In this document: positions 7,702-63,669 of the stretch, in pieces
Layout: the number at the start of each line of letters is the position of its first letter
Position numbering within the stretch: position 1 is the first letter of the stretch
DNA from: a virus
DNA length: 64,000 nt
IMG/VR virus record: IMGVR_UViG_3300045988_076381
Strand: one strand, 5' to 3'
The notes under the pieces: generated by a model
Told to the model about the DNA's origin: nothing
Database searches by the model: none
Seen by the model: the letters and a program-made list of their open reading frames with translations, nothing else
Made by a program: the position numbers and the translations under genes

Positions 7702-7941
7702 ATTCACATCCACGTCCCATTCGATAGCAAAAGCATCAATACTCTTACGTCCGGGCTTAGGAATATCTTGATAAACCATATTTTCAATTCTCTCAGTTAA
7801 AGCTGATACAGTATGTCCGGGACATAAAGATGCAGCTAAACCTACTCTATGAGTAATTCGTCCCAAGAATTGGGAGAAGTCATGAAAAGTTCTTGAGCCA
7901 TTCATATTGGCTCGATTTGAAATGTATTCTGCTACAAACAT
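7702..7941 (-). CDS. putative major capsid protein, exon 1 of 7
   Basis: ATG at 7941, 19 nt after the scaffold-like gene. 80 codons ending ...EWDVDVN at the P1 splice-site U. The capsid call rests on position after the scaffold and the 506-aa spliced size. Confidence 0.7.
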
Positions 7942-7959
7942 TTTAAATTAAATTTAGAT

Positions 7960-9027
7960 CTAATCCTTTAGGTTAAGAAAACTTTTTAAATCTGAATTTT
8001 CTATTTTATTACCTTTACCTGTTGATAGATTAGATGTGTTATTACTACGTTTTTTATTTTTAAGTTTACTTAATTTCTCTAGTCTATTCTTTAGGTACTC
8101 TTCATCGTTAAGTACATTATTATAATGTTCATGAATAGCTTCAATTAGTTCGTCTCCATGAGTAGCATAAAATGCTAATTTAAATAATGTATCTGGATTA
8201 TCTAAATCACTTGCAAGTTTTGTCCTTCCCGTAATCTGGGGTTTAGTTATATAATCCATTGTACTATCTATATCTGATTCTTCAAGGTCAAAACCTCCAA
8301 TAGTCTTAATATTTTTTCCAGCCTCTCTAAGAGTACCTATTATCTTATTTAATTCTTCCTCAGATAACTGAGAGTCTTGTTCTTCTTTCTGTTTAGCTTC
8401 GGCAGATAATCTTTCTTCTTCTGCTTTATATATCTCACGTAATTTATTAACCTTTTTCTCAAAAGATTCAGAATTTTCTTTAGCTTTATTTACTTCATCA
8501 ACTAATTCATCTTCTGTTAAAATATCTCCGTAATTATTTTTTATATATAAAGCATATATATCCTCATCTGATAATTCATCTACCTTATAAACAGCTCCTT
8601 CATTTGCTAAATATTCCTCAATTCCTTTCTGTTTGTAATAATTTACTAAAGATTCGGAGTTAAGGTTATTTTCACGCATAAATGTAAGAAGATTTATCTC
8701 ATCATCGTCTAGGTTATAATCATCTTCTTCTAAATTAAGAAGTTCTATTTGTTCTTCTCTGCTTAACTCAGTAAATGGGACACTGTGAATTACTCCGGTT
8801 TCAGTATCCTCTATTTTTATATTATTAAAATCTATTCCTCTAGATTTAAGAACAGACTCTAATAAAGATTGTTCGTCTATAACAGGAGAAGTATTCTCCT
8901 CTGTATTAACTTCCTCTTGGGAAGTATCTTTTTTACCATCCACATTCTCCTCAGATGATTTTTGAGGAGTAGATTCTTCGTCTAATGAGTTGAAGATATC
9001 TAAATCATTTTCATATTCCATATACAA
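7960..9027 (-). CDS. putative scaffolding protein
   Basis: 355 aa, very acidic with long coiled-coil-like Glu/Lys stretches, immediately upstream of the capsid gene. Based on composition and position only. Confidence 0.45.
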   Translation of the reverse strand: MYMEYENDLDIFNSLDEESTPQKSSEENVDGKKDTSQEEVNTEENTSPVIDEQSLLESVLKSRGIDFNNIKIEDTETGVIHSVPFTELSREEQIELLNLEEDDYNLDDDEINLLTFMRENNLNSESLVNYYKQKGIEEYLANEGAVYKVDELSDEDIYALYIKNNYGDILTEDELVDEVNKAKENSESFEKKVNKLREIYKAEEERLSAEAKQKEEQDSQLSEEELNKIIGTLREAGKNIKTIGGFDLEESDIDSTMDYITKPQITGRTKLASDLDNPDTLFKLAFYATHGDELIEAIHEHYNNVLNDEEYLKNRLEKLSKLKNKKRSNNTSNLSTGKGNKIENSDLKSFLNLKD

Positions 9028-26762: not shown

Positions 26763-27562
26763 TATTTTCTACAATTGCAAGAATTAAATCCAGAGGAGTA
26801 TTTAAGATAGTCATTATTACAAAATCCCCCACAAACCTGAATTTCTTCTATAATTCTCTCTGCTTCGTAATAACTACATTTATCTATTAATCTATGTATT
26901 AATTCTAAAGCTATAAATACCATATTTCTATCTCTAAATACCTGAGAAATATTATTATCATTTTTTATATTACATCTAGTATACAATTTATTATAATAGA
27001 TATATTTTAATTTATTCTCATAACAATATTCTAAATTCCCTAAAAGAAATGTCTCTTCTTCAATCCCTATTATATTAGAGTTAGATTGATTACTATATAA
27101 ATCCATTATAGATACTTTCTTTTCAGTATAACTTCCGGATATAATAGTTATTTCATAGATCTCTACTTCTCCATTTGAAAGTTCTTTCGCGGAATAGAAT
27201 ATTTCCCCTTCCATATTTAAACTAGATGGAGATACTCCATGAACCCATTCGTAATTAGGTAATGCTAAATGATCTATTATATGCCATCCATCTATTTTAG
27301 TAGAATAATTTAATTTATAATCAGTATATTCTTGATCTGAATGACATACATAATAAAAATCAGATACTTTAGGATCTTCAATAGTATTTAAAGTAATCAA
27401 ATCAATAAATACAATATCTTTTGTTCTTAAATAATTAGAAGATATCTGTGATACTTCTGGATAGATACTACTAGTACTTATACCAGTAGTATCCTTCAAT
27501 GTAAATCCAGATATTCCATATTCAGTTAATGAAATGCTTAAATTTAATGAAATATTTTTCAT
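26762..27562 (-). CDS. hypothetical virion-module protein
   Basis: 266-aa ORF with start/stop overlaps to both neighbours. Confidence 0.55.
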   Translation of the reverse strand: MKNISLNLSISLTEYGISGFTLKDTTGISTSSIYPEVSQISSNYLRTKDIVFIDLITLNTIEDPKVSDFYYVCHSDQEYTDYKLNYSTKIDGWHIIDHLALPNYEWVHGVSPSSLNMEGEIFYSAKELSNGEVEIYEITIISGSYTEKKVSIMDLYSNQSNSNIIGIEEETFLLGNLEYCYENKLKYIYYNKLYTRCNIKNDNNISQVFRDRNMVFIALELIHRLIDKCSYYEAERIIEEIQVCGGFCNNDYLKYSSGFNSCNCRK

Positions 27563-29796
27563 TTTCCAAAATTTACTTCGTTATTTCTAGGATTGTTATC
27601 AAATAATTGTGCCCATTCAATATCAGCTTTCTTTTCTTCAATCTTATTTCTCTCTTTATCATTTTCATCTTTAGATTTAGCAGTAAACCATTTAATAGAG
27701 GAATCTTGTTCTTTTTGTTTTAGATTTTCTACTTCTTTAATAGATTTTTGCAATTCCTCTTGAAGTTGCTGTATCTGTTGTTGAGCTTCTTTAAGAGCTT
27801 GATCATATTGCTGTATCTGCTGTTGAGCTTGTTGTATTTGATTATTCTCCTCTTTTTGACGTTTAATTGCGTCTAATGTTATTTGTTTATATTCTGTGAT
27901 ACTCTTACATCCAATAGCTTGTACTAATACATCAGCTGTTAATTGTCCCGATTTAATTAACTCAAGATTATATGCTTTTATAGTTTCTAAGTCTTGTAAA
28001 GCGGATTGAGTATCAGCAATATTTATATCAAAGTCTGTTACTGTATAATGTTCTGGAAGTGCTGTGAAAATAGCTTTTTGTTTCTCTCCAAGAATTATAG
28101 TTCCTTGAAATCCATCTTTATATACTACTTTAGCTATATTTAAACTATCTAAGAATAATTCTCTTAAAGCTAATGCCATGTTAGAGAAGTATATTTTTGT
28201 GACAATTAGTGATTGATTAATTCCGGTTCTAACATTAGTAACAGCATCTCTAGTTTCAACTCCTCCAATAGCTTCTCTAAATGCTCCTGTTATATTAGAT
28301 GCGAGTTGTTCTATTTTTTCTATAGCTAAATCTAGAGCTTGCATTGATTGGTAGGATAAACTCATATCATATGTATTAAATACAGCATTTGGCATAGATT
28401 GTCCAGCCTCACTTTGGGAAGTATCTAATGCTGCGAATCCTTGTTTTACATACGCCATGAATTTAAGTAATCTGTTTGTTTCATCTTCCTCGTCTAAGAA
28501 TGTGGGGATTTTAGAGAAATCTACTGCAATACCTTTTGTCCCACTTACTGCAATGGCATTATTTCGAAGGAAAAATAGTATATTATACATATCTTGCAAA
28601 TCTGCTGTAGCTAATACTAAACTAAACGGGATATTTTGTCTCGTTGTCATAAATAACCCATTAACAGATAATGTACATTCCTTAGGATTATCCATAGATC
28701 TAACTACATTTAAATCTACATCCCTAACAATATAAATATCACTAGCAATTTTAACTACAGAGTATCTATGCATTACACCATCTTTTCCTGTCTCTATATA
28801 TTCTACCTCATATACAGTAATTAATCTATTATTATATCCATACATTCCAGTATTCCCATCCCAAACAGGAGTTACCTCTAGTCCCCCTAATATTCCGGTA
28901 GCAAATTCCGAATCCTCTGTAGTAGCAGCATTTATTGGTCCGGTAGATCTTATTATATACTTCTGATTATCAGTATAATATGCCTTCTCTAATTCATCTC
29001 TTAACTTAGTTTTATCAGCTTCTGTTAATTCTGAATTATATTTAGATAAGATCTGATCTACTGTCATGTAATATCTACAAACAGCTCTAGGAGATTTATT
29101 TAAATAATAACTATTAGGATTTTTCTCCACAAAAGTATTAATAGGATTTAATCCTTCTATATCCACATTATTCCCACTTCTAGAAGGTTGTGTTTTAAAA
29201 TAAAGTGTTCCGGAGATTAATAAATCCGTCATTAATAATCTAGCTTTTATATCTAAATCAATACTTTTAGATTGAGATAAATATGTTATAATATTCTGTG
29301 CTGCTATTTCATATTCAGAAATAAAATTTTTATCTATATCTTCCTTTAATAATTGTAGAGACTTTTCAGTTAGAGGATCTTTTGTTATAGGAGTATTCTG
29401 ATCTCCGAATTTAGAGAGAATAGTATTATATAAATTACTCATATATAATTCCCTAACTCCATCTAATACTTTAAGCTGTCTCTCTCTATTTATTAAAGAT
29501 AATGTCTTTTGATCTTTACATGTAATTTGCATATTTAATGGAGCATCTAGAAACTTCCCAACTAAATAATCTATGTGCTTTTTTATAAGTGGTATAAATT
29601 GTATTTGTGTCGGAGTTCCTATTCCATAATTTTCTTCGAAATGCTTATATTGATCTAAATCCATCTTCCCGTGATAGTAGTTATAAGCTTTTCTTATCGC
29701 TACTTTATCATACACGAGATCAGAAATAGCTTGATTAGCCTTCTGAATTTGATAGTCTTTTGATCCTCGTTTGTACTCGACGCTCATCCAAATCAA
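27559..29796 (-). CDS. putative portal protein
   Basis: 745 aa, about 260 nt downstream of the large terminase (a 108-aa ORF, 29735..30061, spans the gap). Gln-rich coiled coil near the C-terminus. Based on size and position, no motif-level proof. The real start is possibly Met4. Confidence 0.55.
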   Translation of the reverse strand: MIWMSVEYKRGSKDYQIQKANQAISDLVYDKVAIRKAYNYYHGKMDLDQYKHFEENYGIGTPTQIQFIPLIKKHIDYLVGKFLDAPLNMQITCKDQKTLSLINRERQLKVLDGVRELYMSNLYNTILSKFGDQNTPITKDPLTEKSLQLLKEDIDKNFISEYEIAAQNIITYLSQSKSIDLDIKARLLMTDLLISGTLYFKTQPSRSGNNVDIEGLNPINTFVEKNPNSYYLNKSPRAVCRYYMTVDQILSKYNSELTEADKTKLRDELEKAYYTDNQKYIIRSTGPINAATTEDSEFATGILGGLEVTPVWDGNTGMYGYNNRLITVYEVEYIETGKDGVMHRYSVVKIASDIYIVRDVDLNVVRSMDNPKECTLSVNGLFMTTRQNIPFSLVLATADLQDMYNILFFLRNNAIAVSGTKGIAVDFSKIPTFLDEEDETNRLLKFMAYVKQGFAALDTSQSEAGQSMPNAVFNTYDMSLSYQSMQALDLAIEKIEQLASNITGAFREAIGGVETRDAVTNVRTGINQSLIVTKIYFSNMALALRELFLDSLNIAKVVYKDGFQGTIILGEKQKAIFTALPEHYTVTDFDINIADTQSALQDLETIKAYNLELIKSGQLTADVLVQAIGCKSITEYKQITLDAIKRQKEENNQIQQAQQQIQQYDQALKEAQQQIQQLQEELQKSIKEVENLKQKEQDSSIKWFTAKSKDENDKERNKIEEKKADIEWAQLFDNNPRNNEVNFGK

Positions 29797-30234: not shown

Positions 30235-30515
30235 CCCATTTCGCACCATATTTGTTATCTATAAGGCTTTTTATCCTTATATTCTTATAATTTCTTATAA
30301 GCTCAGCATATATTTTCATCTTATATTTAAATAAGATGTTCCGCACTCGTGGAAGGATTATTACTCTCATTAACGTTCACCTTCTATGCGTTACAATGGC
30401 TAACGATGTTTTAGCTTATCTCGGTATTAGCATGGTATTTAAACTTTAACTTTCACCGATTTTGCGGAATTATTTTATTACCTTAAATTTCTTTAAGGAG
30501 GGACATGCAAGGTCT
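30235..30515 (-). mobile_element. group I-like intron T3 (ORF-less, second family)
   Basis: P1 GGGAU/GUCCC with U30516.G30504. P2 CCUUAAA-GAAA-UUUAAGG. P3 UUCCGCA/UGCGGAA. J3/4 AAA. P4 UCGGUG/UACCGA. 3' end ...GAAAUGGG. Confidence 0.65.
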
Positions 30516-31534
30516 ATCCCCATTGCAGCGATAATATCAAACTTCCTCTTATTCTCATAAGAATAATCCTTTAACTCATTTAACATCTCTATACAATCAA
30601 TTCTATCCCAGAATTCATTAACATAATCCTGAATAAGTTCAAGATAATACTCAATAACTCTTTTTGAGGGATAAATACCGTACATACTAGAATTTAAAGA
30701 TTTCTTCTTAGATACATCTGTACTATTCGGAGATTGTAATTTTTTCATTAATAAATATTGTTTTCCTTTATCCTGAAAATAACTTACAATAGCTGTTCTG
30801 GAACTTTCTAATACTGCTTTTGCTCCATACCATTCTAATAATAGAATTGTCTGATTATAAGCTGTTCTAATATTCTCAGGCCTATCTTTATATATAGCTA
30901 CATATTTATTTCCATCAAGTCCATAATTCCTCTTCTTTATAACTAAACAGAAATCAGATGTATCCTTCTGCCCAGTAGACTGATCAATACCTTGGTCAAT
31001 AGAGTCAATTCCAGCAACATAAAGATTAGGTATTAAATCACCATTCTCATCTCTTATAGGCTCTTCAAATATTTTAACTTTACCATTAGGAGAAGAGATG
31101 AATTTAATATTATCTCTACCTCCATCTGTGGCTAAAGCAAGTATACCAATTTTTGGTTTTATTCCGTAGCCATGAACTTCTATATCTGTTAATCTTTGTG
31201 CGATTAAATTCTGATTGAACATATTATCTCCTTTCCTAGATAAAGCTTCTTGGAAAGTCCAACAATACTCTGCACAATGTACCATATAAGCAAAGGGATC
31301 ATTTGAGTATCTTTGACGTTCAATCATTAAAAATTCTTCTGCTTTCTTACGTATTGTAACTCCTCGATTATCTATTATCCCAGGTTGCATTACTATGGCA
31401 GTAGATGGGATAAAGTATGCTGTATAGACTGTACGATTATCTGAGGAGTGATTATGTTTATATGGTAAGATTCCGAAGGAAATTGGATCAAGAAACATCC
31501 GTTCTAGTCCTTCTAAAGATGGACCACTATCTCC
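30516..31534 (-). CDS. terL: terminase large subunit, exon 3 of 4
   Basis: Nuclease-domain part (LYVAGIDSIDQG..., ...KFDIIAAMG). The track start (GTG at 31537) is really the intron 3' end. Confidence 0.75.
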
Positions 31535-31818
31535 CACTTTGTTATCTCTAGAGCTTTTTATCTCTAGATTCTTACACTTCTTAATTTATGTAAGGTCAGC
31601 ATATATTTTCATCTGTTCTAGATGTCGAACACTCGTGGTAGGATTATATTTATTCACCTACTATGCGTTACAGTATCAATTAACCTTTCGCAATTTAATT
31701 GATTACCTCGGGATTGGCATCACAGCTTTCCCCGATTTTGCTCGATTTTCTCAATGAAGATTCCTCTTCAAGCCGGCAAAATTTTATATTTTCTTTCTAA
31801 ATAAATACTGGAATATTT
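31535..31818 (-). mobile_element. group I-like intron T2 (ORF-less, second family)
   Basis: P1 CCGGU/GCCGG with U31819.G31777 and a 41-nt L1. P2 UGAAGA-GGAA-UCUUCA. P3 UCGAGCA/UGUUCGA. P4 UCGGGG/UCCCGA. Ends ...AAAGUG. Confidence 0.65.
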
Positions 31819-32229
31819 ACCGGTACCATAACCAATCTTAAATCCAACTCTTTGTCCAATTACCTTAATAAGAGCATCTCCTTGAATCCATTTCTTAATC
31901 AACTCGGGGTCAGAACCACATTCTTCGTATATAAGTAATTCACATCGATCACCTCTGACTTTAGAAGGTTTATCCGCTACAATACCTGTTATCATAGATT
32001 TAAATCCGGATTCATTACCTTCTCTATCCTTCTTTGATGCTCTTTTTTGGACCATAGTATTTATCGCTTGGCGTAAATGCTTAAATCCATTCTCTGTTTC
32101 TGTATTTAAATAATCCAATTGTACCCAACATTTCTCTAATGTCTTAGCTAAGAAATCACTAGTTGCTGCGGTATATATAGATTGAGACTCTGGTTCACAT
32201 GTATACATTGCAACTCCATTATTTGCTCC
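31819..32229 (-). CDS. terL: terminase large subunit, exon 2 of 4
   Basis: 137 codons containing a Walker B-like CELLIYEECGS. Ends ...KIGYGTG at the splice-site U. Confidence 0.75.
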
Positions 32230-32536
32230 CATTTCACTGAAACCGCTTCTGTTATCATAAAGACTTTTTATTCTTTATTTCCTGGAGTTTCCTCCTTACT
32301 ATATTTAGATTTAATCATCTAAAGGATCGGCGCACGTTTTTATCTCATATTTAAATAAGATATTCCGAACTCATGGGAAGATTATTACTCTCTTAACGTT
32401 CACTTCCTGCGCTCTACGATAATTAATTGATATTTAATCATCTCGGCATTAACATAGTTTATATTTAAACCTTAGTCTTTACCGATATTTCGGAATTTAT
32501 TACCCTTAAATTACTTTAAGGGAGGCCCGGTATTTT
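32230..32536 (-). mobile_element. group I-like intron T1 (ORF-less, second family)
   Basis: P1 GGCUU/GGGCC with U32537.G32528. P2 CCCUUAAA-GUAA-UUUAAGGG. P3 UUCCGAA/UUCGGAA. P4 UCGGUA/UGCCGA. Ends ...GAAAUG. Confidence 0.65.
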
Positions 32537-33346
32537 AAGCCCACGTCCCTTTAAAACAAGAGCATCTTTATTTGTTTTCCTACATAATTCCAGATAATGA
32601 AAATATTCATATTGTTTTGCTAGAAACATTGGAAAAGATGTAGCACGTTTACCTTTTTTTGTTCCTCCTGTATCTAATATAATCGGAGTTTGCATTCGAT
32701 AGAAATTTAAATAAAAATAATTCCATCCAGTTATAGTATACCCATGTGAAGTATAGCCCTCAGTACATCTTCTGAATCTCTCATCCCAGAAATTATTATA
32801 TGCAGGACCTTTATAAGCATACATCTCATACTTCCCTGTAGCTTCTTTAGTCATTGCATCTTCTCTGAACCAATCAGGATTAAAATCTAATCCTTGTGTT
32901 TCTGTTATAGGTCTATACCCAGTAAGTTCATACGAAAGTTCGGGATCAAAGAAATCTACTGGATCTCCTATTTTAACATCCCAATCAGTAAATGCTTCTG
33001 ATTGTTCTAGAGCTTTAGTCTTTAATTTACTATATAAATAATCATCTATTTCAACTTCATCTCTAGCAATTTTATAGTTAGATAAATCTTTAGATATATA
33101 AGAATTATCATATAATTTCTGCTCTTCCGATTCCTCTTCTTTTAACTTTTCGGGGGTATCATAGGTACTAAGATCTCTTACTATTGTTTCAGTATCTAAA
33201 GAATTTAAAAGTTCCTTTGTAGTAGGTTTCTTTTTTACAACTCTTTTAGGTTTTTCTGGTTCGGAATCTACTTTTTTAGGAATATCTTTCTTTGCCTTTA
33301 CTTTAGATACATTACCTTTTGCTCCATATGTAATTTTCCTAGCCAT
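32537..33346 (-). CDS. terL: terminase large subunit, exon 1 of 4
   Basis: 270 codons ending ...ALVLKGRGL. Splicing to exon 2 gives KGRGLGANNG (Walker A-like region). Confidence 0.75.
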
Positions 33347-34748: not shown

Positions 34749-34768
34749 TTAAATTTAACATAAAACAT

Positions 34769-35035
34769 TTACCATTTATTTAATACACAATGATTATTTT
34801 TATTTCTTGTCTTTGCCATTAGTCTACATCCACATCCTTTAACCCATCCAACCATTTCTACATTAGATACCTGACCAGTACGAGGATTTATCCATAATTT
34901 AGGATCACAATAGCCTCCATATTTTTCTGAATATAAAGGACATTCTTTACATATCTCCAATCTTTTTAAATATAATTTTTCATTTATATTTAAAAATTCC
35001 TTTGCGTGTCCTGATAATATATCTTTAATACTCAT
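34769..35035 (-). CDS. Cys-rich small protein (zinc-binding?)
   Basis: 88 aa with CKECP...C...GCGC...HC pattern. Confidence 0.5.
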   Translation of the reverse strand: MSIKDILSGHAKEFLNINEKLYLKRLEICKECPLYSEKYGGYCDPKLWINPRTGQVSNVEMVGWVKGCGCRLMAKTRNKNNHCVLNKW

Positions 35036-35040
35036 GATAT

Positions 35041-37020
35041 TTAAAATATTATAGGTTTATTTTCTTCTTCATATTTCCGGAGAATTAACTGCTTTTTATA
35101 GTATTTAAGCATCTTCTCTATATCAGATTTTAAATATTCTAGAACATACTCATTAACTTCACCATCGTGAGTAAAGTGAACAATTCTTAGCTCATCAATA
35201 ATTAAATCCGGATTTTGTTTTTGAAGCATCCATGCGTAAAGAGATAATTGAAGAGTATAATGTAAGAAGTTACAATCCATTATATTATTTAAAGGGTATT
35301 TCATCATTTGATACTTCTTCTTTTTAGGATCAAAATAGGATTTTTGTTTTAATTTCTTATTAGTATTATGTGTTGGAATCATAGAATATCCAAACAAAAA
35401 AGTATGAGAAGGACTATCTACTTCAATACATTGTGTTGGAATAGTATCTACTTTTTCTACAGATTTAATATTTCTATAATGATTCTTAGACCCATTAGAT
35501 AATTCAATATTTTGATTTCTAGTTAAAAAAGGGTTTAAATCATTACTAGAAAAACAAATATCATATCCTAGAAAAATTTTACCATCACACTTCTTTTTTA
35601 CATTAAATATTGTTCCTTTTAAACCTAAACTAGATATTAATTTAATTGTATCGTCTGCTTGCCATCTTTGAGTAGTTGACATTACAAATCTTCTCCTTTC
35701 TTTATGATAGTATCCGTCAGTATCCATCAGTCCTCTAAGAAGATCTAATCGTTGTTCAAATGAAGCCCTCAGATATATATCAGGAATATGTTTATATTCT
35801 AATACTCCTAATTGTTTTAGCTTTGTACGTAAACCATAAATTGTTTTACATTCTACATTAGCTCTATCTGGATTATGTTGAGCATTTTCTCCTATATCAT
35901 ATCCTCTAGATTTAATTTCTTCCCATAATGGAGAATCTTTTCTTTGAGTAATTAGTCCACATGATTTTGAACCGTCACCAAGCCAACAACCTAATACATA
36001 TGGATCTATAGGTAAATCTGCTTTTGGGAGATTTAAAGGTTTAGCATTAAGTATTTTTGGAAGTTCTTCTGATTTAATTTTTATTCTTTTTTCTTTTCTA
36101 TTATTTATATCTTCTAATAGATAATGTAATTCCTCAGTTGTCATTACTTTATTTGTATATTTTTTGTTTTTTAAGAAGGATATAAACCAACGATGTTCGT
36201 GATCTGCTATAATACTTTCAGAATTATCAAAAGTTATTTTATAACAAGGATTATAATGTATTTCAGATTTATGTACTACTTTAGTTATATTTCCATCCTT
36301 ATCAAAAATTTCTTCTCCTTCTTTAATATCCTTTATAGTTGTCCATCCAGATTTAGTTGCAATTGGCGTGTCTAAAGGTAATCCTTTCCAGTCCCATACT
36401 TTGATATGATTTCCATTTTTAATAATTAAATCAGATTGTCCAGCAATACGTAACATTCCTTCTGGATCTATATAAGAAATTAACATTTCCGGTATAATTC
36501 CTGTATCTATATCTAAATTATGATGATTTTTATATACAGGAATAGTTCCTCCTAAATTAAATCTCTTAATCATTTTCTCAGCATGATTATAAAATCCAGT
36601 TTCTTGTTCTGCATGTATCTCAGTACCATACTCACAAGCTATCCTATTTGTTTCTCCCCAATCTTTTACATATTTATTACAAGTCTCTTCAAATACTTCT
36701 TTTGTAATACTATCTGGAATATAAGAATCATCCCATTTTTTAGTATTTAATAAAGAACTCTTTACATTAATAAAATCATTTCCCATTAACTCTTCTAACG
36801 CCTTATACTTCTTCCAAAAATCTGAATCAAACTTATTCTCGAACTCTCCAATTAAAGTAGTTACAGAAATAAATTTTTTTCCTTCACCTACTCCCTTTTT
36901 ACCTACATACACATGTTTCTCATCATTGTATGTAACATCATCGTTTTCCTTATCGACGATTAAATCATTACCATCGAAGGAGAAGTATTTAACATCTCCT
37001 TCATTCATACTCATAGTCAT
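35041..37020 (-). CDS. PD-(D/E)XK (RecB/Cas4-like) nuclease interrupted by an intein
   Basis: Extein motifs GTEIHAEQE, GQSDLII, VWDWK|T (DxK-T) and YTLQLSLYAW. About 340 aa of Hint+LAGLIDADG sequence is inserted between K212 and T553. Confidence 0.7.
   Translation of the reverse strand: MTMSMNEGDVKYFSFDGNDLIVDKENDDVTYNDEKHVYVGKKGVGEGKKFISVTTLIGEFENKFDSDFWKKYKALEELMGNDFINVKSSLLNTKKWDDSYIPDSITKEVFEETCNKYVKDWGETNRIACEYGTEIHAEQETGFYNHAEKMIKRFNLGGTIPVYKNHHNLDIDTGIIPEMLISYIDPEGMLRIAGQSDLIIKNGNHIKVWDWKGLPLDTPIATKSGWTTIKDIKEGEEIFDKDGNITKVVHKSEIHYNPCYKITFDNSESIIADHEHRWFISFLKNKKYTNKVMTTEELHYLLEDINNRKEKRIKIKSEELPKILNAKPLNLPKADLPIDPYVLGCWLGDGSKSCGLITQRKDSPLWEEIKSRGYDIGENAQHNPDRANVECKTIYGLRTKLKQLGVLEYKHIPDIYLRASFEQRLDLLRGLMDTDGYYHKERRRFVMSTTQRWQADDTIKLISSLGLKGTIFNVKKKCDGKIFLGYDICFSSNDLNPFLTRNQNIELSNGSKNHYRNIKSVEKVDTIPTQCIEVDSPSHTFLFGYSMIPTHNTNKKLKQKSYFDPKKKKYQMMKYPLNNIMDCNFLHYTLQLSLYAWMLQKQNPDLIIDELRIVHFTHDGEVNEYVLEYLKSDIEKMLKYYKKQLILRKYEEENKPIIF
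35365..36384 (-). mobile_element. intein with LAGLIDADG endonuclease, class-3-like (WCT)
   Basis: Block A GLPLDTPIAT (no Cys/Ser1), block B ADHEHRW, LAGLIDADG motifs LGCWLGDGS and LLRGLMDTDGY, block F TQCIEVDSPSHTFLF, block G MIPTHN followed by Thr+1. Confidence 0.65.
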
Positions 37021-37032
37021 AATATATAAATT

Positions 37033-37743: not shown

Positions 37744-37787
37744 TTAACTTATTTTCTATTTTTAATACACACTTATTTTGAATAGTG

Positions 37788-37795
37788 CAAATATA
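37788..37795 (-). promoter_or_regulatory. Bacteroidota-type -7 box TATATTTG
   Basis: Minus-strand TAnnTTTG about 45 nt upstream of ATG 37743, at the head of the long minus-strand block. Confidence 0.35.
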
Positions 37796-37881
37796 TTAAT
37801 AACTTGCAGTCAAAACAAGATTTATATATTTAAATTTAAAAATATAAGAAATAATATGTTTAACGCGTTAAATTATAGAGT

Positions 37882-42799: not shown

Positions 42800-43828
42800 T
42801 TATATTAAATCTATATTATTTAAGTTATTATATATATTCACAATCCTTTCCTTAAATTCTTTAATAGATAAATTACTCTTCATTACATTAATCTTATCCT
42901 CACAAATAACAATATTTCCTTTTATATATCCTTTATTAGAATCTATCCTATCCACAGAAGGTCTATAATCTTTTGAAAACGGGATTCCAGAATAATAACA
43001 TTTCCCCTCTTGTGCTTTGTACATCTCATTTAAATATTCTTCTGTAATATCCAATTCCTTTTTTATATTATTTTTATTACTATAATTATATTTTCTATAC
43101 TCACAATTTCTTTTACATTTATCTAATAACCACTTTCCTATATTTTCCCATTTCTTTTCTTCCTCTTCATCTCGTGCACACTTACTACATAAGAAATTTC
43201 TATGCTTATCAAATTTAGAAGGATCTGTTTCTCCACATTTTATACATAATTTATCAGAGTGTTTATATATAACCCTTTCTTCAGTATTCTCACCTTTTAA
43301 TAATTTAGAATTAACTTGATATCCTTTAGGTGTTTTTAAAAGAGTGTACTTAGGATGTGAGATTTTTAAAGTTATATCTTTTGTATTCTTAAGTATTCCA
43401 AATAAACCTTCTGTATTAAATTCTTTTAATCTTCTTGTAATATTATAAATAGTTCCAATAACACAATCTATATTATTATCATCTAAAATTCGTTTTAATT
43501 CTCTAGCTGGAATTTTATCATATGATGGTAGAATGTTATAAAACATTAGAATGAAAGCTTTGTTGTTTAATGTTAGATCTGGATTAGTTAAAAAATCTGG
43601 ACAAGATAATGATGTATGAATTTTAAATCTTGGAGCGAAGCCATTGCTGGAACAATCTTCAATATCTCCAGATGAAATTAAATGTTTTGTGGATACTTTT
43701 ATTACTTCATCACTTATACCGTAAGTAGATAATTGGGAAGATAAAATACTTGCAATTTCGTCTTCTTCTTTAAATGCATTAAGGATTCTTAATACTACTT
43801 CTAATTTAAAATTTTCAATTGTTTTCAT
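42800..43828 (-). CDS. free-standing HNH-type endonuclease
   Basis: 342 aa. CxxC pairs (CIKCGE...CSKCARD) and C-terminal CYYSG...SVDRIDSNKGYIKGNIVICEDKINVMKS. Confidence 0.6.
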   Translation of the reverse strand: MKTIENFKLEVVLRILNAFKEEDEIASILSSQLSTYGISDEVIKVSTKHLISSGDIEDCSSNGFAPRFKIHTSLSCPDFLTNPDLTLNNKAFILMFYNILPSYDKIPARELKRILDDNNIDCVIGTIYNITRRLKEFNTEGLFGILKNTKDITLKISHPKYTLLKTPKGYQVNSKLLKGENTEERVIYKHSDKLCIKCGETDPSKFDKHRNFLCSKCARDEEEEKKWENIGKWLLDKCKRNCEYRKYNYSNKNNIKKELDITEEYLNEMYKAQEGKCYYSGIPFSKDYRPSVDRIDSNKGYIKGNIVICEDKINVMKSNLSIKEFKERIVNIYNNLNNIDLI

Positions 43829-45628: not shown

Positions 45629-45701
45629 GGTCCCATAGCGTAAAGGTTAACGCAAAACACTCATAATGTTGAGATTCTAGGTTCAAGTCCTAGTGGGACC
45701 A
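45629..45701 (+). tRNA. tRNA with CAT anticodon (Met or lysidine-Ile)
   Basis: Hand-folded cloverleaf: acceptor GGTCCCA/TGGGACC, D stem GCGT/ACGC, anticodon loop CTCATAA, T arm CTAGG-TTCAAGT-CCTAG. Confidence 0.85.
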
Positions 45702-45824
45702 CGATATTGATTTTCAGGATTTCTGAGGTTTAGAATTTCTGGATTAATGTTTTTTGTAATTTTTTTCATGATCAGTGTTTAACATTAGCAACATTTAATG
45801 AGATGTGATATCTCCTTCCTTATT

Positions 45825-45849
45825 AAGGAGAGTTAATACTCTCCTTTTT
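45825..45849 (+). terminator. hairpin terminator candidate
   Basis: AAGGAGAGT-TAAT-ACTCTCCTT followed by TTTT. Confidence 0.5.
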
Positions 45850-45965
45850 AAATTTGTTTATTATGAGAAAGATAGATATAAAATACATAATGACAATAAT
45901 AGGAATATTTATATTTCTATTATTATTATCTTCATTAGAATCAATCATTAATTCTATTTAAATAA

Positions 45966-46039
45966 GAGCGAATATCCAAATTGGTTAAGGGAATAGTCTG
46001 CAAAACTATATTGTGAGAGTTCGAATCTCTCTTCGCTCT
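45966..46039 (+). tRNA. tRNA-Cys (GCA)
   Basis: Acceptor GAGCGAA/TTCGCTC, anticodon stem ATAGT/ACTAT with loop CTGCAAA, T arm GAGAG-TTCGAAT-CTCTC. Confidence 0.85.
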
Positions 46040-46156
46040 CATTAAATATTATATTTAAAAGGTTATATTCGGAAATATATAAGAATGATATCTTTTAAAT
46101 ACTTTAAAATTATATTAATTAAAATAAATAAAAATAATCTTTTAAATATAATAATT

Positions 46157-46426
46157 ATGAAGATCGTGATTAATAGATCCGGAATTGGATTAAATCTATC
46201 TCTACCAGCTATAGAGTATTTAATTAAATATAAAGTAATTAAGTCTCCATTAGATATGAGAAATATTAATAGGAGTAGCCCAAGATTGGTAAGATGTATC
46301 GAAGTATTAGGAGATAACGCATCTTTAGATATGTTAGAAACGATAACAGTTAGAGATGATTTTAAATATAAAATCTCTGAAATCCAAATAGGTAACATCC
46401 ATAGAGAAATTATCCTCATGGAGTAA
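46157..46426 (+). CDS. hypothetical protein
   Basis: ATG at 46157 (MKIVINRSGIGLNLS...) inside track ORF 46085..46426. Preferred over the low-complexity antisense ORF 46063..46419. Confidence 0.45.
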   Translation: MKIVINRSGIGLNLSLPAIEYLIKYKVIKSPLDMRNINRSSPRLVRCIEVLGDNASLDMLETITVRDDFKYKISEIQIGNIHREIILME

Positions 46427-46594
46427 GATATTTACATATGTAAATCTAATTAGTGTACAATAATTAGATATTCCAAGCTCTACTGGTTACAGAGTATAAA
46501 TAAACCTAGATTTTTAGATTTCCAAATTGACCTAAAATCTAATATCTTAGGATTAGATATAAAATAAGCGTGGAATACTTATTGTTAAATCAAC

Positions 46595-46664
46595 TTCTTA
46601 GTAGTTTAACTGGTGAAAATGTCATATACAGTAGGAAATATTAGTTCGAATCCAATCTAAGAAG
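46595..46664 (+). ncRNA. tRNA-like element with unpaired anticodon arm (pseudo-tRNA?)
   Basis: Acceptor TTCTTAG/CTAAGAA, U8-A9, D arm GTTT-AACTGGTGA-AAAT, T arm ATTAG-TTCGAAT-CCAAT. No 5-bp anticodon stem can be drawn in 46621-46639. Confidence 0.35.
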
Positions 46665-46710
46665 TGATAAAGAAACTCATATAATTCATATCTTAATATT
46701 AACCCGAAAA

Positions 46711-46796
46711 AAGGGCAACAGTAGGGTTGGGGTGGGTTCAGTGCCCTTGAGATAGTATCAAAATCAGCAATAATGCAGATGAGCTGTAACCACCCC
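46711..46796 (+). ncRNA. structured spacer RNA candidate (pseudoknot-like)
   Basis: AAGGGCA(46711-17)/TGCCCTT(46742-48). The loop sequence GGGGTGG(46729-35) is complementary to CCACCCC(46790-96), which is followed by TTTT. Confidence 0.3.
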
Positions 46797-46824
46797 TTTT
46801 ATTAATAATTTTGTTTATATTCTA

Positions 46825-46896
46825 TGCGAGATAGTGTAAAGGTAACATCCTAGGCTCATAACCTAGAGGATGGTGGTTCGAATCCATCTCTCGCTA
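46825..46896 (+). tRNA. tRNA with CAT anticodon, U1:U72 mismatch
   Basis: Acceptor TGCGAGA/TCTCGCT (first pair mismatched), D stem GTGT/ACAT, anticodon stem CTAGG/CCTAG with loop CTCATAA, T arm GGTGG-TTCGAAT-CCATC. Confidence 0.8.
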
Positions 46897-47132
46897 CTAT
46901 ATAATAGACTTCAGATATTTAACGCGGAATATAGAAGTTTGTTATATTTTATAATTATGCATGCTAATTATAAATCCCAACTCATCCTATGTCTAAGGGG
47001 AGTATAAATTAAAAGCAGATCCATCTTTTTGAGTTTGTATTGGTAATGAGAATAACTCTATAACTTAGAAATGTTATAAAACTTTCTTGAATTTAAGATA
47101 TAAGGTTTGGGAACTTACATCATTAAATTAAC

Positions 47133-47207
47133 TCCTCAGTAGCTCAGTTGGCTAGAGCAGCGGACCGTTAATCCGTAGGATCGTAGGTTCAAGTCCTACC
47201 TGAGGAG
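47133..47207 (+). tRNA. tRNA-Asn (GTT) with C at position 33
   Basis: Acceptor TCCTCAG/CTGAGGA, D arm GCTC-AGTTGGCTA-GAGC, anticodon stem GCGGA/TCCGT with loop CCGTTAA, T arm GTAGG-TTCAAGT-CCTAC. Closely parallels the E. coli tRNA-Asn layout. Confidence 0.8.
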
Positions 47208-47651
47208 CATAATAAAGAGTGTAGTACTAGTGTAGGACTCAACGTAACTTATAGGTTTTGTATTGTACATATAAATTTAGTCCTATTGGGTGTCGTATAA
47301 CCCAACTTAGCTATCGAGTACGGTTAATGATAGCATTTTTATCGAACTTTCATAAAAATAATTATATGAGAAACAAGCATTATTTCCTAATAGATTAATC
47401 TGATAAACCGTATATTGGAGTTGATACACTTATAATTGTCTAATGCAGCTTCGTATTATAAGAAGCAAGTCAATATAAGAAATCAGTTCAGAATAATGTA
47501 TTGTATTCGACGTGGGATTTAAAATTGTATTTATGTGATAGATGTATAGAGAGAAGATTAAGACGGAAAATATCTGGAGAAGATCTAATTCCAAATGATC
47601 CTGTTAATAATTTATATATACAAATATGTCTAGATTTATAATTTATTAATT

Positions 47652-48035
47652 ATGAAAAAGAGAGAACTCCCAAAAGAAGTAAAGAGATGGATTAAATTTT
47701 TTATAAAAACTAATGCTTATTATAATTTTGATTGGGCATTTATGTTAGATGTAGAAAAAGAGAAATTAACTCAATGTATTAAATTTTTTACTGATAACGG
47801 ATGTCATATTAATAATTCCAGAATAATTTCGAAGATGCAATTGGCTGTGAGATTATTAGATATTGCTAGGGATGAGGATTTAGATTTTAAAGGTTATGTA
47901 AATACTAAGAATATAAATAGATTTATTTCTATAGATAAATATGATATTGATATTCTCCCAACTCTTCGAACTGAAAAAGCGTGGTATTTATATAATAAAT
48001 TAAGATATTATTATATGAAAGAATGGTGGGATTAA
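47652..48035 (+). CDS. hypothetical protein
   Basis: 127-aa ORF embedded in the tRNA cluster. Confidence 0.55.
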   Translation: MKKRELPKEVKRWIKFFIKTNAYYNFDWAFMLDVEKEKLTQCIKFFTDNGCHINNSRIISKMQLAVRLLDIARDEDLDFKGYVNTKNINRFISIDKYDIDILPTLRTEKAWYLYNKLRYYYMKEWWD

Positions 48036-48044
48036 ATATATTAT

Positions 48045-48130
48045 GCTAGAATGGTGAAATTGACAGACACTCAGGACTTAAAATTCTGTGGATAGTAATA
48101 TCCGTGTGGGTTTGAATCCCACTTCTAGTA
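48045..48130 (+). tRNA. tRNA-Leu (TAA), long variable arm
   Basis: Acceptor GCTAGAA/TTCTAGT, anticodon stem CAGGA/TTCTG with loop CTTAAAA, variable arm TGGATAGTAATATCCG, T arm GTGGG-TTTGAAT-CCCAC. Confidence 0.85.
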
Positions 48131-48422
48131 CTATCTAGATGTAGCAAAATCAGTGAAGTTAAATACAGAAATACGCTTCGTAAGAGAACCTGTAGTCCTT
48201 AAAGGATAGTGGTGACACTGAGCCAATCTATTTATATAGAAGGTGAGATTCCAAAAACTACAATATTTATAGGGAATCAATCATATAAGAAATTATATGA
48301 AATCTCTGATAATCTATAGTGCCTTATAGAAAAACAGGGGATGAAGTTAAGGCACAAACTTCATTGGGATATATTCCCGGCGAAAGAGATTTTATATATC
48401 TCTGGATCTGATTATTTAATAG

Positions 48423-48485
48423 TACTTTGTGCATCGGATGCACTCCGAGGGATGTGAGGTTAAGGTTCGACTCCTTACAAAGTGC
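48423..48485 (+). ncRNA. truncated tRNA-like element (acceptor + T arm)
   Basis: TACTTTG/CAAAGTG acceptor and TAAGG-TTCGACT-CCTTA T arm. Only about 29 nt lie where the D and anticodon arms should be. Confidence 0.3.
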
Positions 48486-48515
48486 CTAAGTAGTAATTAT
48501 TTAAATATTCATATT

Positions 48516-49415
48516 ATGGAAATTAGAAATGAGAATAAAGTATTTTTTGGAGAGAGTGGTATTACTTCTACTTCTGCTACATATTTATGTAACATTGCTA
48601 GGGAGTTATTAAAAGATATAGAATCATCTTTAAATAATATCTCCTTCATTACTGAGGAAGTAACACTCTTTGGATCTGAGAATAAGATTAGAACTAAAGA
48701 AGGATATAATTTATCCGAACTATCTGATCTAGATTCTAAACTTACTAAAGCTGCACAACTAAAAGCATTTATAGCATGGATGAGTGAAGGAATCAAAGCA
48801 AAAGATGTGGAAAGTGAGAAACTTAGAGAATATACTTTATCTGATTTTATAAAGGATTTCCCTGAATATGTAGTACAGAGGTCTAAAGATTCTACACTAG
48901 ATCCTAATTATGGACTTGGGAAATTAGATGTTTCAGAACGGGTTAAATATCTCTTCTCAGAAGCTTTAACTTCTTCAATTGGGAAATATATTCATAATAA
49001 TGGTGCTTTAAGAAAAGCTTATAGCGAGCTTTTAAATATTGCACATAACAAAGTGAATATAACCACAGAAGCAAAAGATTCTATAGTTGTAGTCACTAAT
49101 AAAATCCCAAGTGTGGATACTAAAAAAGTAGAAAAGATTATGCTTAAATATCAAGATTTACGAAGAGAGAATGAGAAGGTTCTGAACTCTTTGAAATCTA
49201 AGATAAAAAGTTATGATCATGAATATCAAATATATCTTACTCTTGAAGATAAAGCAGCTTCAGAGTCGTATAATGAAAAGATGGAAGTAGTACGTTCAAA
49301 ATATAATGAATATGTATTAAATAAGAGATCGGAAATTGAGAAACTTAAAATCATCATCCCAGATGGTTTAAGGAGTATTTATAACGATCTTCATACCATC
49401 TCAAAAGAAAAATAA
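48516..49415 (+). CDS. hypothetical protein
   Basis: Start moved to ATG 48516 (MEIRNENKVFF...) because the track's upstream extension overlaps the tRNA-like element. Confidence 0.6.
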   Translation: MEIRNENKVFFGESGITSTSATYLCNIARELLKDIESSLNNISFITEEVTLFGSENKIRTKEGYNLSELSDLDSKLTKAAQLKAFIAWMSEGIKAKDVESEKLREYTLSDFIKDFPEYVVQRSKDSTLDPNYGLGKLDVSERVKYLFSEALTSSIGKYIHNNGALRKAYSELLNIAHNKVNITTEAKDSIVVVTNKIPSVDTKKVEKIMLKYQDLRRENEKVLNSLKSKIKSYDHEYQIYLTLEDKAASESYNEKMEVVRSKYNEYVLNKRSEIEKLKIIIPDGLRSIYNDLHTISKEK

Positions 49416-49693
49416 ATAAAGTAGGTAATACTTAAATCCATTTGGATGGAGGTATTTTTATATGTATAGATTATATATATAATAAAATTTAGCTAAATAA
49501 TATAGACGATAATATAAACTATTAATGCGAAAGAATCCTCAAAAGATGTTTTTATTTAAATAAATATACTTATTTAAATATAAACTATACTCCTCTTTCT
49601 GTCTTAACCTTAGTCCTTGAGAGGATTCTTGCCCTTGACATATTCTTTGGCTGTATTTATATAATCTATACATAACTATTTTTAATAAACATT

Positions 49694-49764
49694 TGTCCTA
49701 TAGTATAATGGTAATACATCTGGTTTTGGTCCAGAGAATTGAGGTTCAAATCCTCGTAGGACAA
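49694..49764 (+). tRNA. tRNA-Gln (TTG)
   Basis: Acceptor TGTCCTA/TAGGACA, D arm GTAT-AATGGTA-ATAC, anticodon stem TCTGG/CCAGA with loop TTTTGGT, T arm TGAGG-TTCAAAT-CCTCG. Confidence 0.85.
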
Positions 49765-50147
49765 CAATTCTATAATGGGAATTTTTAGATTGATTATTTC
49801 TTATAGAAAAGTCTGGACAAATTTTGTTTGGACTTTTCTTTTCATTCAATAGATATTGAAAAATTCGAAAACATATGATAAATTCTCCAAATAGTTATTT
49901 AACTGAATATTATATAAATAAAGTTTTGTTTATATAACTCTTTAAAAGACTGTAAAATATTAAAATTTCAAAACTAAACGGATTCTATGGCTTATAAGTA
50001 GAATACCCCTTTCTGTCTATTTTATCAAGCCTAGATACTCTAAAACTATTTTTAAGTCAACTTCCAGATATGGTATGTTTGGACTATTATAGATTTTTGG
50101 AGTTCTAGGCTTTTTTATTTTCATTTTTCAAACTCGGATTTTCAAGT

Positions 50148-62547: not shown

Positions 62548-63669
62548 ATGAAAACATGTAAATATTGTGGATGTGATATATCCCACCTAAGAGCTAATGC
62601 TACCACTTGTGGATCGAGAGAATGTATAAATGCGTATAGAAGAGAACGTAAATCCAAACCTAAGGAGCCAAGAACTTGCGAAATTTGTGGAACGTCTATA
62701 GACGATCTTCCTGGACAAAGGAGAATTTGTAAAAATCCAGAATGTGAAGCGGAGCAAAAAAGAAGAAAATATGCACAGGCCTTAAAAGAAAAAATATGTA
62801 AAAAATGTGGAGATACTTTCCTTGGCACTTCTAAACAAACCTGTTGTGAAAACTGTAGAAAACATAAAGATATAACATTTAAAGTTATAGAACAGAAAGT
62901 AGTTTGTGAAGATTGTGGAGCCTTACTAAGGACCGAAAGTAAAAAAGTTAATGGAAAAACTAAGGAGATTATAGCAAAAGGAATGTGTGATGATTGTAAA
63001 CAAAAACATAGAGAGAAACTTAGTTTACAAATGAAAGAACATAATCCTATGTTTGATCCTGAGATAGTTAAAAAAACTTCGGAGACAAGACGATATAAGT
63101 ATCTACAAAAATGTGAAGAAGAAGAAAGGCTTCCTTATGTAAGAAAAGGATGTAAAGGTGAAACTAGGGAAGAAATGATTCAAAGAATGAAAGAACACAA
63201 TCCTATGTTTGATCCTGAAACTAGAGCAAAGGTCAGCAAAACTCTTAAAGAAAAAATTTTATCTGGAGAAATTATTTATGCTAAAGGTCCAGAACATCAT
63301 TTGTGGAAAGGTAATAGAAATTTTAATAAGGCAGTACGTATAGAATTAAGAAAATGGGTTAAAGAACAAATGGAAAAGGTTCATTATATATGCCAAAAAT
63401 GTGGGAAAACACGCACCGAATTACATGTACACCATTTACATCCATTAAGGGATATAATTTTGGATACTTTAAATAAAAATAATTTAACTATCATAGATAT
63501 AAATAGTATGGAGGGTTCAGAACAATATTTTGATATAATTAAACAAATAATTGAATATCATTATCAACATAATGATATCGGAATTGTTGTTTGTCCCCAA
63601 TGTCATAATGAACTAGATAGTTATTATAAAAGAAAAACTCATGAAAATAGTAAGTATAAAGAAAGTTAA
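62548..63669 (+). CDS. HNH homing endonuclease with zinc ribbons and NUMOD3-like repeats
   Basis: Four CxxC...CxxC ribbons, two KEHNPMFDPE repeats, C-terminal ELHVHHLHP...N...CPQCHNELD. Lies between the two intein halves. Confidence 0.75.
   Translation: MKTCKYCGCDISHLRANATTCGSRECINAYRRERKSKPKEPRTCEICGTSIDDLPGQRRICKNPECEAEQKRRKYAQALKEKICKKCGDTFLGTSKQTCCENCRKHKDITFKVIEQKVVCEDCGALLRTESKKVNGKTKEIIAKGMCDDCKQKHREKLSLQMKEHNPMFDPEIVKKTSETRRYKYLQKCEEEERLPYVRKGCKGETREEMIQRMKEHNPMFDPETRAKVSKTLKEKILSGEIIYAKGPEHHLWKGNRNFNKAVRIELRKWVKEQMEKVHYICQKCGKTRTELHVHHLHPLRDIILDTLNKNNLTIIDINSMEGSEQYFDIIKQIIEYHYQHNDIGIVVCPQCHNELDSYYKRKTHENSKYKES

Follow-up and report, generated by a model that had tools for sequence, protein, structure and literature searches.

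The subject of this analysis is an intein-bearing exonuclease gene in a viral DNA stretch of 64,000 nucleotides (nt), IMG/VR record IMGVR_UViG_3300045988_076381, which is referred to as the window. The gene is located on the minus strand at 35041..37020 (stop codon 35041..35043) and was taken from the open reading frame (ORF) list as a precursor of 659 amino acids (aa), a PD-(D/E)XK exonuclease of the Cas4/RecB-like type with an intein inside; all of its parts described below are on the minus strand. The N-extein M1-K212 (36385..37020) carries H136, E140, D197 of motif II and D210-W-K212 of motif III, and ends with VWDWK, in which K212 is residue -1. It is followed by the intein G213-N552 (35365..36384, 340 aa, 1020 nt), which is delimited by a presence/absence polymorphism against the contig L001 and its protein P0121 and was further identified by matches to PDB entries, an AlphaFold2 model and Foldseek searches. 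The C-extein T553-F659 (35044..35364) starts with Thr+1 (35362..35364) and contains the QxxxY residues Q591 (35248..35250) and Y595 (35236..35238). The intein is placed directly after the Lys of motif III (DWK/intein/T, with a slash marking a junction here and below) and separates motif III from the downstream QxxxY motif.

Within the intein, the N-terminal half of the HINT domain with blocks A and B covers approximately residues 1-95 (36100..36384, with an approximate inner boundary), according to the alignment to the DnaB1 inteins of Mycobacterium smegmatis (Msm) and M. chimaera (Mch). It begins with GLPLDT at G213, the Gly1 of the intein (codon 36384..36382), and its motif ADHEHRW (272-278) contains the key residues Asp B:7 (D273), His B:10 (H276, 36193..36195) and Trp B:12 (W278, 36187..36189), designated by splicing block and position. 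The LAGLIDADG homing endonuclease domain covers approximately intein residues 105-300 (35485..36072) and was located by Pfam, conservation and structural matches, its boundaries being approximate. Its two motifs are LGCWLGDGS with D349 (35974..35976) and LRGLMDTDG with D435 (35716..35718). The C-terminal part of the HINT domain with blocks F and G (35365..35484), which was assigned by alignment to PDB entry 6bs8 and by conservation in homologues, contains Cys F:4 (C531, 35428..35430) in TQCIEV (529-534), His539, and Thr G:5 (T550, 35371..35373), His551 and Asn552 (codon 35367..35365) in PTHN/T (549-553). The third-position guanine-cytosine (GC) content of the intein is 10%, compared to 20-25% in the two exteins, whereas the overall GC content is alike (27.7% vs 28.0%). 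A phmmer search of the intein against all six-frame ORFs and a search for the motif T[HG]N[STC] found no second intein in the window besides G213-N552.

The spliced sequence matches the Pfam model PDDEXK_1 (PF12705) with 31.8 bits at a cutoff of 22, and phrog_298, annotated as exonuclease, with 6e-24. A structure model of the intein-free allele, i.e. of the extein (predicted local distance difference test, pLDDT, 91.9), was matched by Foldseek to Cas4 SSO0001, MGME1, AddAB, RecE, Exo5 and lambda exonuclease, with modest template modelling (TM) scores of 0.25-0.49. D197 of motif II, D210-x-K212 of motif III and Q591xxxY595 are invariant in 121 homologues, a set that consists of the query and 120 homologues down to about 52% identity and that underlies all conservation counts out of 121 given below. 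The extein alignment contains two nearly invariant Cys (C129 and C243 in spliced numbering); a four-Cys iron-sulfur cluster is typical of bona fide Cas4. The term Cas4-like is used here for the superfamily and not for a CRISPR function.

A first-pass annotation of the window, made by a model from the sequence alone, had proposed a RecB/Cas4-like PD-(D/E)XK host protein, which is supported by the Pfam, PHROG and Foldseek matches and by the invariant motifs. The coordinates given there for the insertion, 35365-36384, correspond exactly to the 340 codons of G213..N552 by residue mapping. The insertion was also described as splitting the D-W-K/T motif. This holds in so far as it lies between K212 and T553, but the DxK triplet itself is not split. 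The computed masses are 77.0 kDa for the precursor, 39.3 kDa for the intein and 37.7 kDa for the predicted spliced product, the last agreeing with the size of about 37 kDa expected in that annotation.

The intein-free allele and the insertion site

A search with the joined extein residues 1-212 and 553-659 retrieved P0121, a protein of 319 aa without the intein that is 99% identical to the predicted spliced product over its full length, as well as many further family members with lengths of about 300-320 aa. When aligned, every one of these proteins without the intein has a single gap that comprises exactly G213..N552, with ...DWK joined straight to TNKK.... P0121 is encoded on contig L001. 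The genes around it agree with those of the window, and the two sequences are 99.4% identical upstream and 98.3% identical downstream of the gap, with an exact in-frame insertion of 1020 nt in the window. For the N-extein, the nucleotide identity to the intein-free allele in L001 is 99.5%. Both intein junctions are fixed by this comparison, as the gene of a 99%-identical relative lacks these 1020 bases. This also settles whether the true N-terminal junction could hold a conventional nucleophile, a refuting condition named in the first-pass annotation: the intein-free allele sets this junction at K212/G213, so there is none.

The empty site in L001 reads ...GGGACTGGAAG/ACTAATAAG..., with the junction core GTATGGGACTGGAAG/ACTAATAAGAAATT, and the occupied site in the window reads GGGACTGGAAA/GGATTA...CATAAT/ACTAATAAG. 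The sole difference near the junction is a synonymous change from AAG to AAA in the -1 Lys codon. This codon, Lys212 (36385..36387), is AAA in the window and in two other occupied alleles (L010 and L011), and AAG in the empty allele of L001. The difference could be a minimal co-conversion tract or could have arisen by chance, the sample being very small. An overlap of 2 nt between the BLAST flanks of the window and L001 is due to the resemblance of the terminal Asn codon AAT to the Lys codon AAG. An insertion shifted by one codon was considered and rejected on the basis of conservation, as it would turn the catalytic Lys into Asn and remove the terminal Asn of the intein. A near-identity DNA search with positions 34000-38000 against deposited phages yielded no match.

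Class assignment and conservation of the intein

The best sequence matches among solved structures are the DnaB1 inteins of M. smegmatis (6bs8) and M. chimaera (6rix, 6riy), with E-values of about 6e-20. Both are established class 3 inteins (PDB 6bs8, 6rix, 6riy). The alignment pairs G1-L-P-L-D-T-P with A1-L-A-L-D-T-P, ADHEHRW with ADAQHQW and MIPTHN with MVPTHN. In the block F region, TQCIEVDSPSHTFLFG is paired with VRCVEVDNPEHLYLAG and QCIEV with RCVEV, and over the C-terminal HINT part QCIEVDSPSHTFLFG..MIPTHN stands against RCVEVDNPEHLYLAG..MVPTHN of 6bs8. In addition, PHROG profiles of intein-bearing terminases match the whole insert with 3.5e-35. The matches to class 3 inteins and to the terminase PHROG are thus both far beyond chance.

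In terms of the features that define class 3, the alignments place Gly at position 1, Trp at B:12, Cys at F:4 and Thr at G:5, followed by His-Asn/Thr. Trp B:12 is found in H276-R-W278, which is aligned with HQW of the Msm and Mch DnaB1 inteins and with HLW of mycobacteriophage Catera gp206. Cys F:4 is C531 in TQCIEV, aligned with RCVEV of 6bs8 and RCITV of Catera, and Thr G:5 is T550 in PTHN, which is identical in 6bs8, 6rix and Catera. The +1 residue T553 is likewise in agreement with the definition of class 3 (Tori et al. 2010). The Trp, Cys and Thr (WCT) triplet had been noticed in the first-pass annotation, and alignment to class 3 inteins puts its residues where they were expected, with Cys531 in TQCIEV at F:4 of the solved class 3 inteins and the Thr before the terminal His-Asn (PTHN/T), T550, at G:5. 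The Trp is at B:12 as well, but its numbering as Trp277 was off by one and should read W278. Gly as the first intein residue was also correctly read, as G213 is fixed by the intein-free allele and aligned with Ala1 of 6bs8 and 6rix.

The AlphaFold2 model of the insert (pLDDT 95.6, predicted TM score 0.92) shows strands up to residue 82 and a linker helix at 83-98, and together with Foldseek it indicates that the insert folds as a HINT domain wrapping the endonuclease. Whole-model matches were PI-SceI, TliVMA, PhoVMA and PI-PfuI with query-normalised TM scores (TMq) of 0.62-0.75, and the best mini-intein matches were class 3 DnaB1 inteins with target-normalised TM scores (TMt) of 0.81-0.87. Matches to inteins and to Hedgehog and bacterial intein-like (BIL) domains were also obtained, and the LAGLIDADG domain was matched to PI-SceI, TliVMA, PI-PfuI and I-DmoI. 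This agrees with a monomeric endonuclease whose two LAGLIDADG helices, both with a conserved acidic residue, belong to a pseudo-dimer of the alpha-beta-beta-alpha-beta-beta-alpha type. The PI-SceI/VMA-type inteins (1vde, 1ef0, 7qsu) share the two-domain layout of HINT and LAGLIDADG and provide the best whole-model matches (TMq 0.66-0.75), but they belong to class 1 (Cys1, Cys+1, no WCT) and are only about 16% identical. The matches to PDB entries and PHROG profiles, the two LAGLIDADG motifs and the model fold bear out the earlier description of the insert as a Hint plus LAGLIDADG intein.

More than 100 full-length intein-bearing homologues with 52-82% identity were found in metagenomes, on contigs of up to about 185 kb. 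Gly1, Asp B:7, His B:10, Trp B:12, Cys F:4, Thr G:5 and the terminal His and Asn are each present in 121/121 sequences, and position +1 is occupied by Thr in 120 sequences and by Ser in one. The LAGLIDADG aspartates are nearly as constant, with D349 kept in all 121 and D435 in 120. An exhaustive profile-free search yielded 17,307 cluster representatives related to the intein, 3,395 of them with E <= 1e-30. Among the best 150 relatives, the intein starts with Gly in 115 cases and with Ala in 22; WCT is present in 144, none of which has Cys, Ser or Thr at position 1 (0/144). The best 150 include 111 proteins shorter than 800 aa, and 109 of these have [D/E]xK at -3..-1, which corresponds to the same nuclease site. 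The Cas4 motif III allele is thus very abundant, as the best 150 matches include at least 109 different clusters at 50% identity that share the site.

Two proteins carry mini-inteins at the same DxK/T site: P0135 (503 aa, insert of about 184 aa) and P0138 (465 aa, insert of about 146 aa). The LAGLIDADG domain is missing from both, and Gly1, Trp, Cys, Thr and His-Asn are still present. As these mini-inteins keep Gly1 and WCT without an endonuclease, they show that selection acts on splicing independently of homing. Empty, full-length and mini alleles have all been found at this site, so that these forms coexist as in a classic homing cycle, and empty and occupied alleles coexist in phages whose aligned flanks are 98-99% identical. 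In 116 of the 120 comparisons, conservation is higher in the intein than in the extein (median 63-64% vs 46%), which is consistent with lateral spread among diverged alleles.

Proposed splicing and homing, and rival readings

Taken together, the segment is very probably a full-length class 3 intein, composed of HINT and LAGLIDADG domains, in a Cas4/RecB-like exonuclease of a low-GC, intron-rich and probably crAss-like gut phage. The assignment to class 3 is strongly supported by the sequence, the structure prediction and the comparative evidence. Nevertheless, several points weigh against this assignment. Splicing, the block F branched intermediate and endonuclease cleavage are put forward by homology, and the higher conservation of the intein could equally mean stronger constraint instead of mobility. 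Position B:7 is Asp, compared to Thr, Ser or Asn as usual in standard inteins, although Asp is also found in 139 of the best 150 relatives. The Pfam models suggested for checking in the first-pass annotation gave a divided result: LAGLIDADG_3 (23.4 bits) and Hom_end (21.9 bits) match the central part just above their cutoffs, but the Hint models stayed below threshold in the Pfam scan of the protein (Hint_2, 12.9 bits). The sole NCBIfam match is a model of an intein-containing Tes protein, over its endonuclease part. The class assignment is therefore based on the alignments to PDB entries, PHROG profiles and homologues.

A course of splicing can be proposed by homology with the MP-Be DnaB, MP-Catera Gp206 and Msm and Mch DnaB1 inteins. 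Translation would yield a 77-kDa precursor, which is presumably nuclease-dead because 340 residues part motif III (D210-x-K212) from the QxxxY helix. Cys531 (F:4), activated by His276 (B:10) together with Trp278 and Thr550, would then attack the K212-G213 bond, giving a thioester-linked block F branched intermediate, with no residue-1 nucleophile being present. Subsequently, the N-extein would move to the side-chain oxygen of Thr553 (+1), and Asn552 would cyclise with the help of His551, releasing the 39-kDa (39.3) intein. A final O-to-N acyl shift would remake the K212-T553 bond and produce the active 37.7-kDa exonuclease. The freed LAGLIDADG endonuclease would cut intein-free alleles in co-infection, with a target around ...TGGGACTGGAAG/ACTAATAAG..., and repair would copy the intein in. 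The occurrence of empty and occupied alleles and the higher conservation of the intein lend indirect support to such a cleavage of the intein-free allele.

A very unlikely alternative is that the segment is a decayed or non-splicing remnant like that of the Arthrobacter pseudogene Arth_1007, which would mean either an inactive gene or a mature protein that still contains the domain. The intein residues (H B:10, W, C, T, H and N) and the nuclease residues D197, D210, K212, Q591 and Y595 are all intact and invariant in the 121 homologues, and the +1 Thr is intact as well, with a single Ser among 121 sequences at this position. In Arth_1007, both His B:10 and Cys F:4 are missing and the extein comprises only 66 residues, whereas the exteins here are of full length and 99% identical to the uninterrupted allele. 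These observations stand against the facts that dead class 3 inteins do exist (PMC3196547) and that this phage carries many selfish elements.

A class 2 or KlbA-like intein, in which the +1 residue would attack the N-terminal junction directly without a block F branched intermediate, would share the lack of an N-terminal nucleophile, yet it is hardly probable. The KlbA inteins, which start with Ala1, are the main nucleophile-lacking exceptions without the WCT triplet (PMC2807308). In contrast, the full WCT triplet and Thr+1 are present here, and the nearest relatives in sequence and structure belong to class 3.

Barely credible is a reading as a standard class 1 intein, with the actual N-terminal junction at a Cys, Ser or Thr close by and splicing initiated by a conventional N-S or N-O acyl shift. 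Thr218 and Thr222 do sit a few residues inside the insert, and a few WCT-bearing inteins start with Ser or Cys (PMC2807308), Catera gp206 with Ser among them. However, the intein-free allele sets the K212/G213 junction, and with a different boundary the spliced protein would keep extra residues or lose some in comparison to the native one. Moreover, Gly1 is found in every one of the 121 homologues, and the 144 WCT-bearing sequences among the best 150 relatives do not include one with Cys, Ser or Thr at position 1.

The probability is negligible that the insert is spliced out of the RNA as a group I intron whose LAGLIDADG ORF is in frame: LAGLIDADG enzymes are common in introns and the window does contain four Rfam group I introns with neighbouring homing-endonuclease ORFs, but no Rfam RNA intron family matches within 35365..36384, the insert consists of exactly 340 codons in frame without a stop, and its HINT domain wraps the endonuclease with every intein splicing block present.

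Known relatives and phage context

The first-pass annotation had expected that a class 3 intein in this nuclease family would extend the range of the class. This expectation does not hold, as the same site has already been published (PMC5050341; bioRxiv 10.1101/2025.01.02.630785). Kelley et al. 2016 (PMC5050341) reported 40 class 3 inteins within the PD-(D/E)XK motif of 'Cas4 RecB-like exonucleases' of cluster C1 mycobacteriophages. More recently, 138 Cas4 exonuclease inteins were described in actinobacteriophages, with the RecB motif III 'EFKT' as insertion site, and LAGLIDADG-bearing class 3 inteins were found almost entirely in Cas4 exonuclease and terminase genes (bioRxiv 10.1101/2025.01.02.630785). 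The Catera Gp206 intein splices in a model precursor (PMC3196547).

A tblastn search against deposited phages found the same element in Catera gp206 and its cluster C1 relatives, in Dexes gp69, annotated as 'Cas4 exonuclease', and in gp79 of Streptomyces phage Frankenweenie, annotated as 'Cas4 exonuclease and intron'. With 47.6% identity over the full length, the unannotated human-faecal phage contig MT835539 was also matched. The alignments read VELK/SLAC..AEHLW..RCITV..PTHN/T for Catera, VVDYK/GLDLDT..SEHIW..ACIGV..PTHN/T for Dexes and VDWK/GLALDT..NEHLW..QCIKV..VTHN/T for Frankenweenie. For the Catera gp206 intein, the coordinates given by Kelley et al. in Table S2, 117445-118437, translate to S150-N480 with the flanks K149 and T481, which is the homologous site.

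Like the present intein, the Catera and other C1 inteins reside in a Cas4/RecB-like exonuclease and are inserted after the motif III Lys and before Thr+1 (VELK/S...THN/T compared to WDWK/G...THN/T here). Both possess WCT and LAGLIDADG, with lengths of 331 and 340 aa, respectively. The Catera intein differs in its identity of about 31%, in having Ser1 instead of Gly1, and in its origin from a mycobacteriophage with 65% GC, compared to a gut phage with 28% GC here. In addition, splicing has been demonstrated for Gp206, whereas it is predicted here. The source paper on the MP-Catera Gp206 intein is reportedly that of Tori and Perler from 2011. Frankenweenie gp79, Mycobacterium phage Dexes gp69 and ScoobyDoobyDoo are closer in that they share Gly1, WCT, Thr+1 and the motif III site at 35-42% intein identity, but these actinophage Cas4 inteins differ in phage lineage and host phylum, and their exteins are distant outside the catalytic motifs. 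The Msm and Mch DnaB1 and the MP-Be DnaB inteins have Lys at -1 and Thr or Ser at +1 as well, and the MP-Be DnaB numbering H65/W67/C320/T339/N341 corresponds to H64/W66/C319/T338/N340 here (PMC2807308). Unlike the present intein, they interrupt a helicase behind its P-loop Lys and start with Ala1; the solved Msm and Mch DnaB1 structures are mini-inteins without an endonuclease, in contrast to the full-length intein described here.

Class 3 signatures are also present in deposited phages other than actinophages, namely in the terminase of Synechococcus phage B23, in Alishewanella phage Slicko01 and in Klebsiella phage fENko-Kae01, as well as in Pseudomonas phage Rollin, whose K/GLPLGT junction probably represents the same nuclease allele. 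Inteins with this signature are therefore already on record in phages of cyanobacteria and proteobacteria, and Gly1 versions occur in the phages Dexes, Frankenweenie and Rollin. The intein is thus a new example of a well-described allele, a class 3 intein in motif III of a Cas4-like exonuclease, and does not extend the range in terms of host protein. New are the phage lineage and setting, i.e. a low-GC, probably crAss-like gut phage, and the abundance of the allele in metagenomes.

It is conceivable, although we lean against it, that the Gly1 class 3 intein at the Cas4-like motif III is a pan-phage mobile element for which intron-rich crAss-like gut phages, with presumed Bacteroidota hosts, form a major unrecognised reservoir. 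If so, exchange would have taken place across phages of different bacterial phyla, including actinophages, Pseudomonas phage Rollin and gut phages, and the proposed actinophage-centred origin of class 3 inteins would be weakened. Furthermore, the obligate Cys531 might place maturation of the nuclease under redox control in an anaerobic host, as has been shown for Msm DnaBi1.

The practical consequences are modest and no new mechanistic question is opened. For annotation, this gene and hundreds of metagenomic homologues, which are now unnamed or misnamed, can be described as an intein-containing Cas4-like exonuclease with a mature product of 319 aa. Misleading names among the homologues include 'HNH endonuclease' in many C1 mycobacteriophages, 'hypothetical protein', 'Cas4 exonuclease and intron' and, in one Clavibacter phage CN1A record, 'terminase large subunit'. 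The protein P0056 is named '5-hydroxyisourate hydrolase-like protein' at the Joint Genome Institute (JGI), a label of the transthyretin-family hydrolases. Empty, full-length and mini alleles at one site offer a natural comparison set for the homing cycle, and the compact class 3 inteins with Gly1/Thr+1 junctions, such as those of P0135 and P0138, could be a source for protein engineering.

The intein gene lies in a structural block beside a fragmented large terminase gene and a portal gene. The portal protein resembles those of known phages only weakly, being about 21% identical to those of crAss-like phages and Cellulophaga phi14:2, and 40-43% identical to those of human-faecal 'Bacteriophage sp.' contigs. 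The GC content is 28.7%, and relatives are found on contigs of 165-186 kb. Due to these two features, the group I introns, the homing-endonuclease ORFs and the tRNA cluster, the phage probably fits the 'Zeta' group of crAss-like phages (Yutin et al. 2021). In the searchable text and the supplementary text of that paper, intein classes are not mentioned and no intein is tied to a PDDEXK nuclease gene.

Four Rfam group I introns (RF00028, 66-107 bits) were found on the minus strand as two close pairs (2798-3081 and 3139-3479; 5318-5544 and 5561-5838). Near them are ORFs at 3527..4606 and 6465..7547 that match homing-endonuclease PHROGs. The large terminase gene (30470..33346, minus strand) is in separate pieces, 33346..31768 with a 292-nt insertion removed and 31537..30470, which match positions 62-186 and 341-717 of PHROG 6681. 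The gap of 230 nt between them is present in L001 too and may be another intron or a programmed discontinuity. The 292-nt insertion (32245..32536, minus strand) lies in the N-terminal part of the gene and is absent from L001. Its removal in silico restores an ORF of 428 aa, of which 426 residues are identical to that of L001. As 292 nt are not a multiple of three, either the insertion is removed at the RNA level or the terminase gene is broken. It shows strong folding (z of about -4.8) and no Rfam match at E <= 1. When its boundaries are set by the exon junction of L001, its last nucleotide is C, compared to the G that is usual for group I introns. The insertion is a candidate for an unclassified self-splicing intron.

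The reverse polymorphism was observed in the portal gene, which is a single ORF of 745 aa in the window (27559..29796) and is split in L001, where about 261 extra nt (at about 7915..8177) result in ORFs of 399 and 344 aa. This extra segment resembles the group I introns of the window (blastn, up to 88% over 34 nt and 67% over 154 nt). A tRNA cluster extends over 45629..49765 on the plus strand, in which ARAGORN predicted Met, Cys, Met, Asn, Leu(taa) and Gln(ttg) and Rfam a seventh tRNA at 46595-46664; no suppressor tRNA is among the tRNAs called in this cluster. The selfish nuclease load of this genome is further increased by two free-standing ORFs, at 42800..43828 (minus strand) and 62548..63669 (plus strand), with matches to PHROGs for HNH endonuclease and endonuclease VII.

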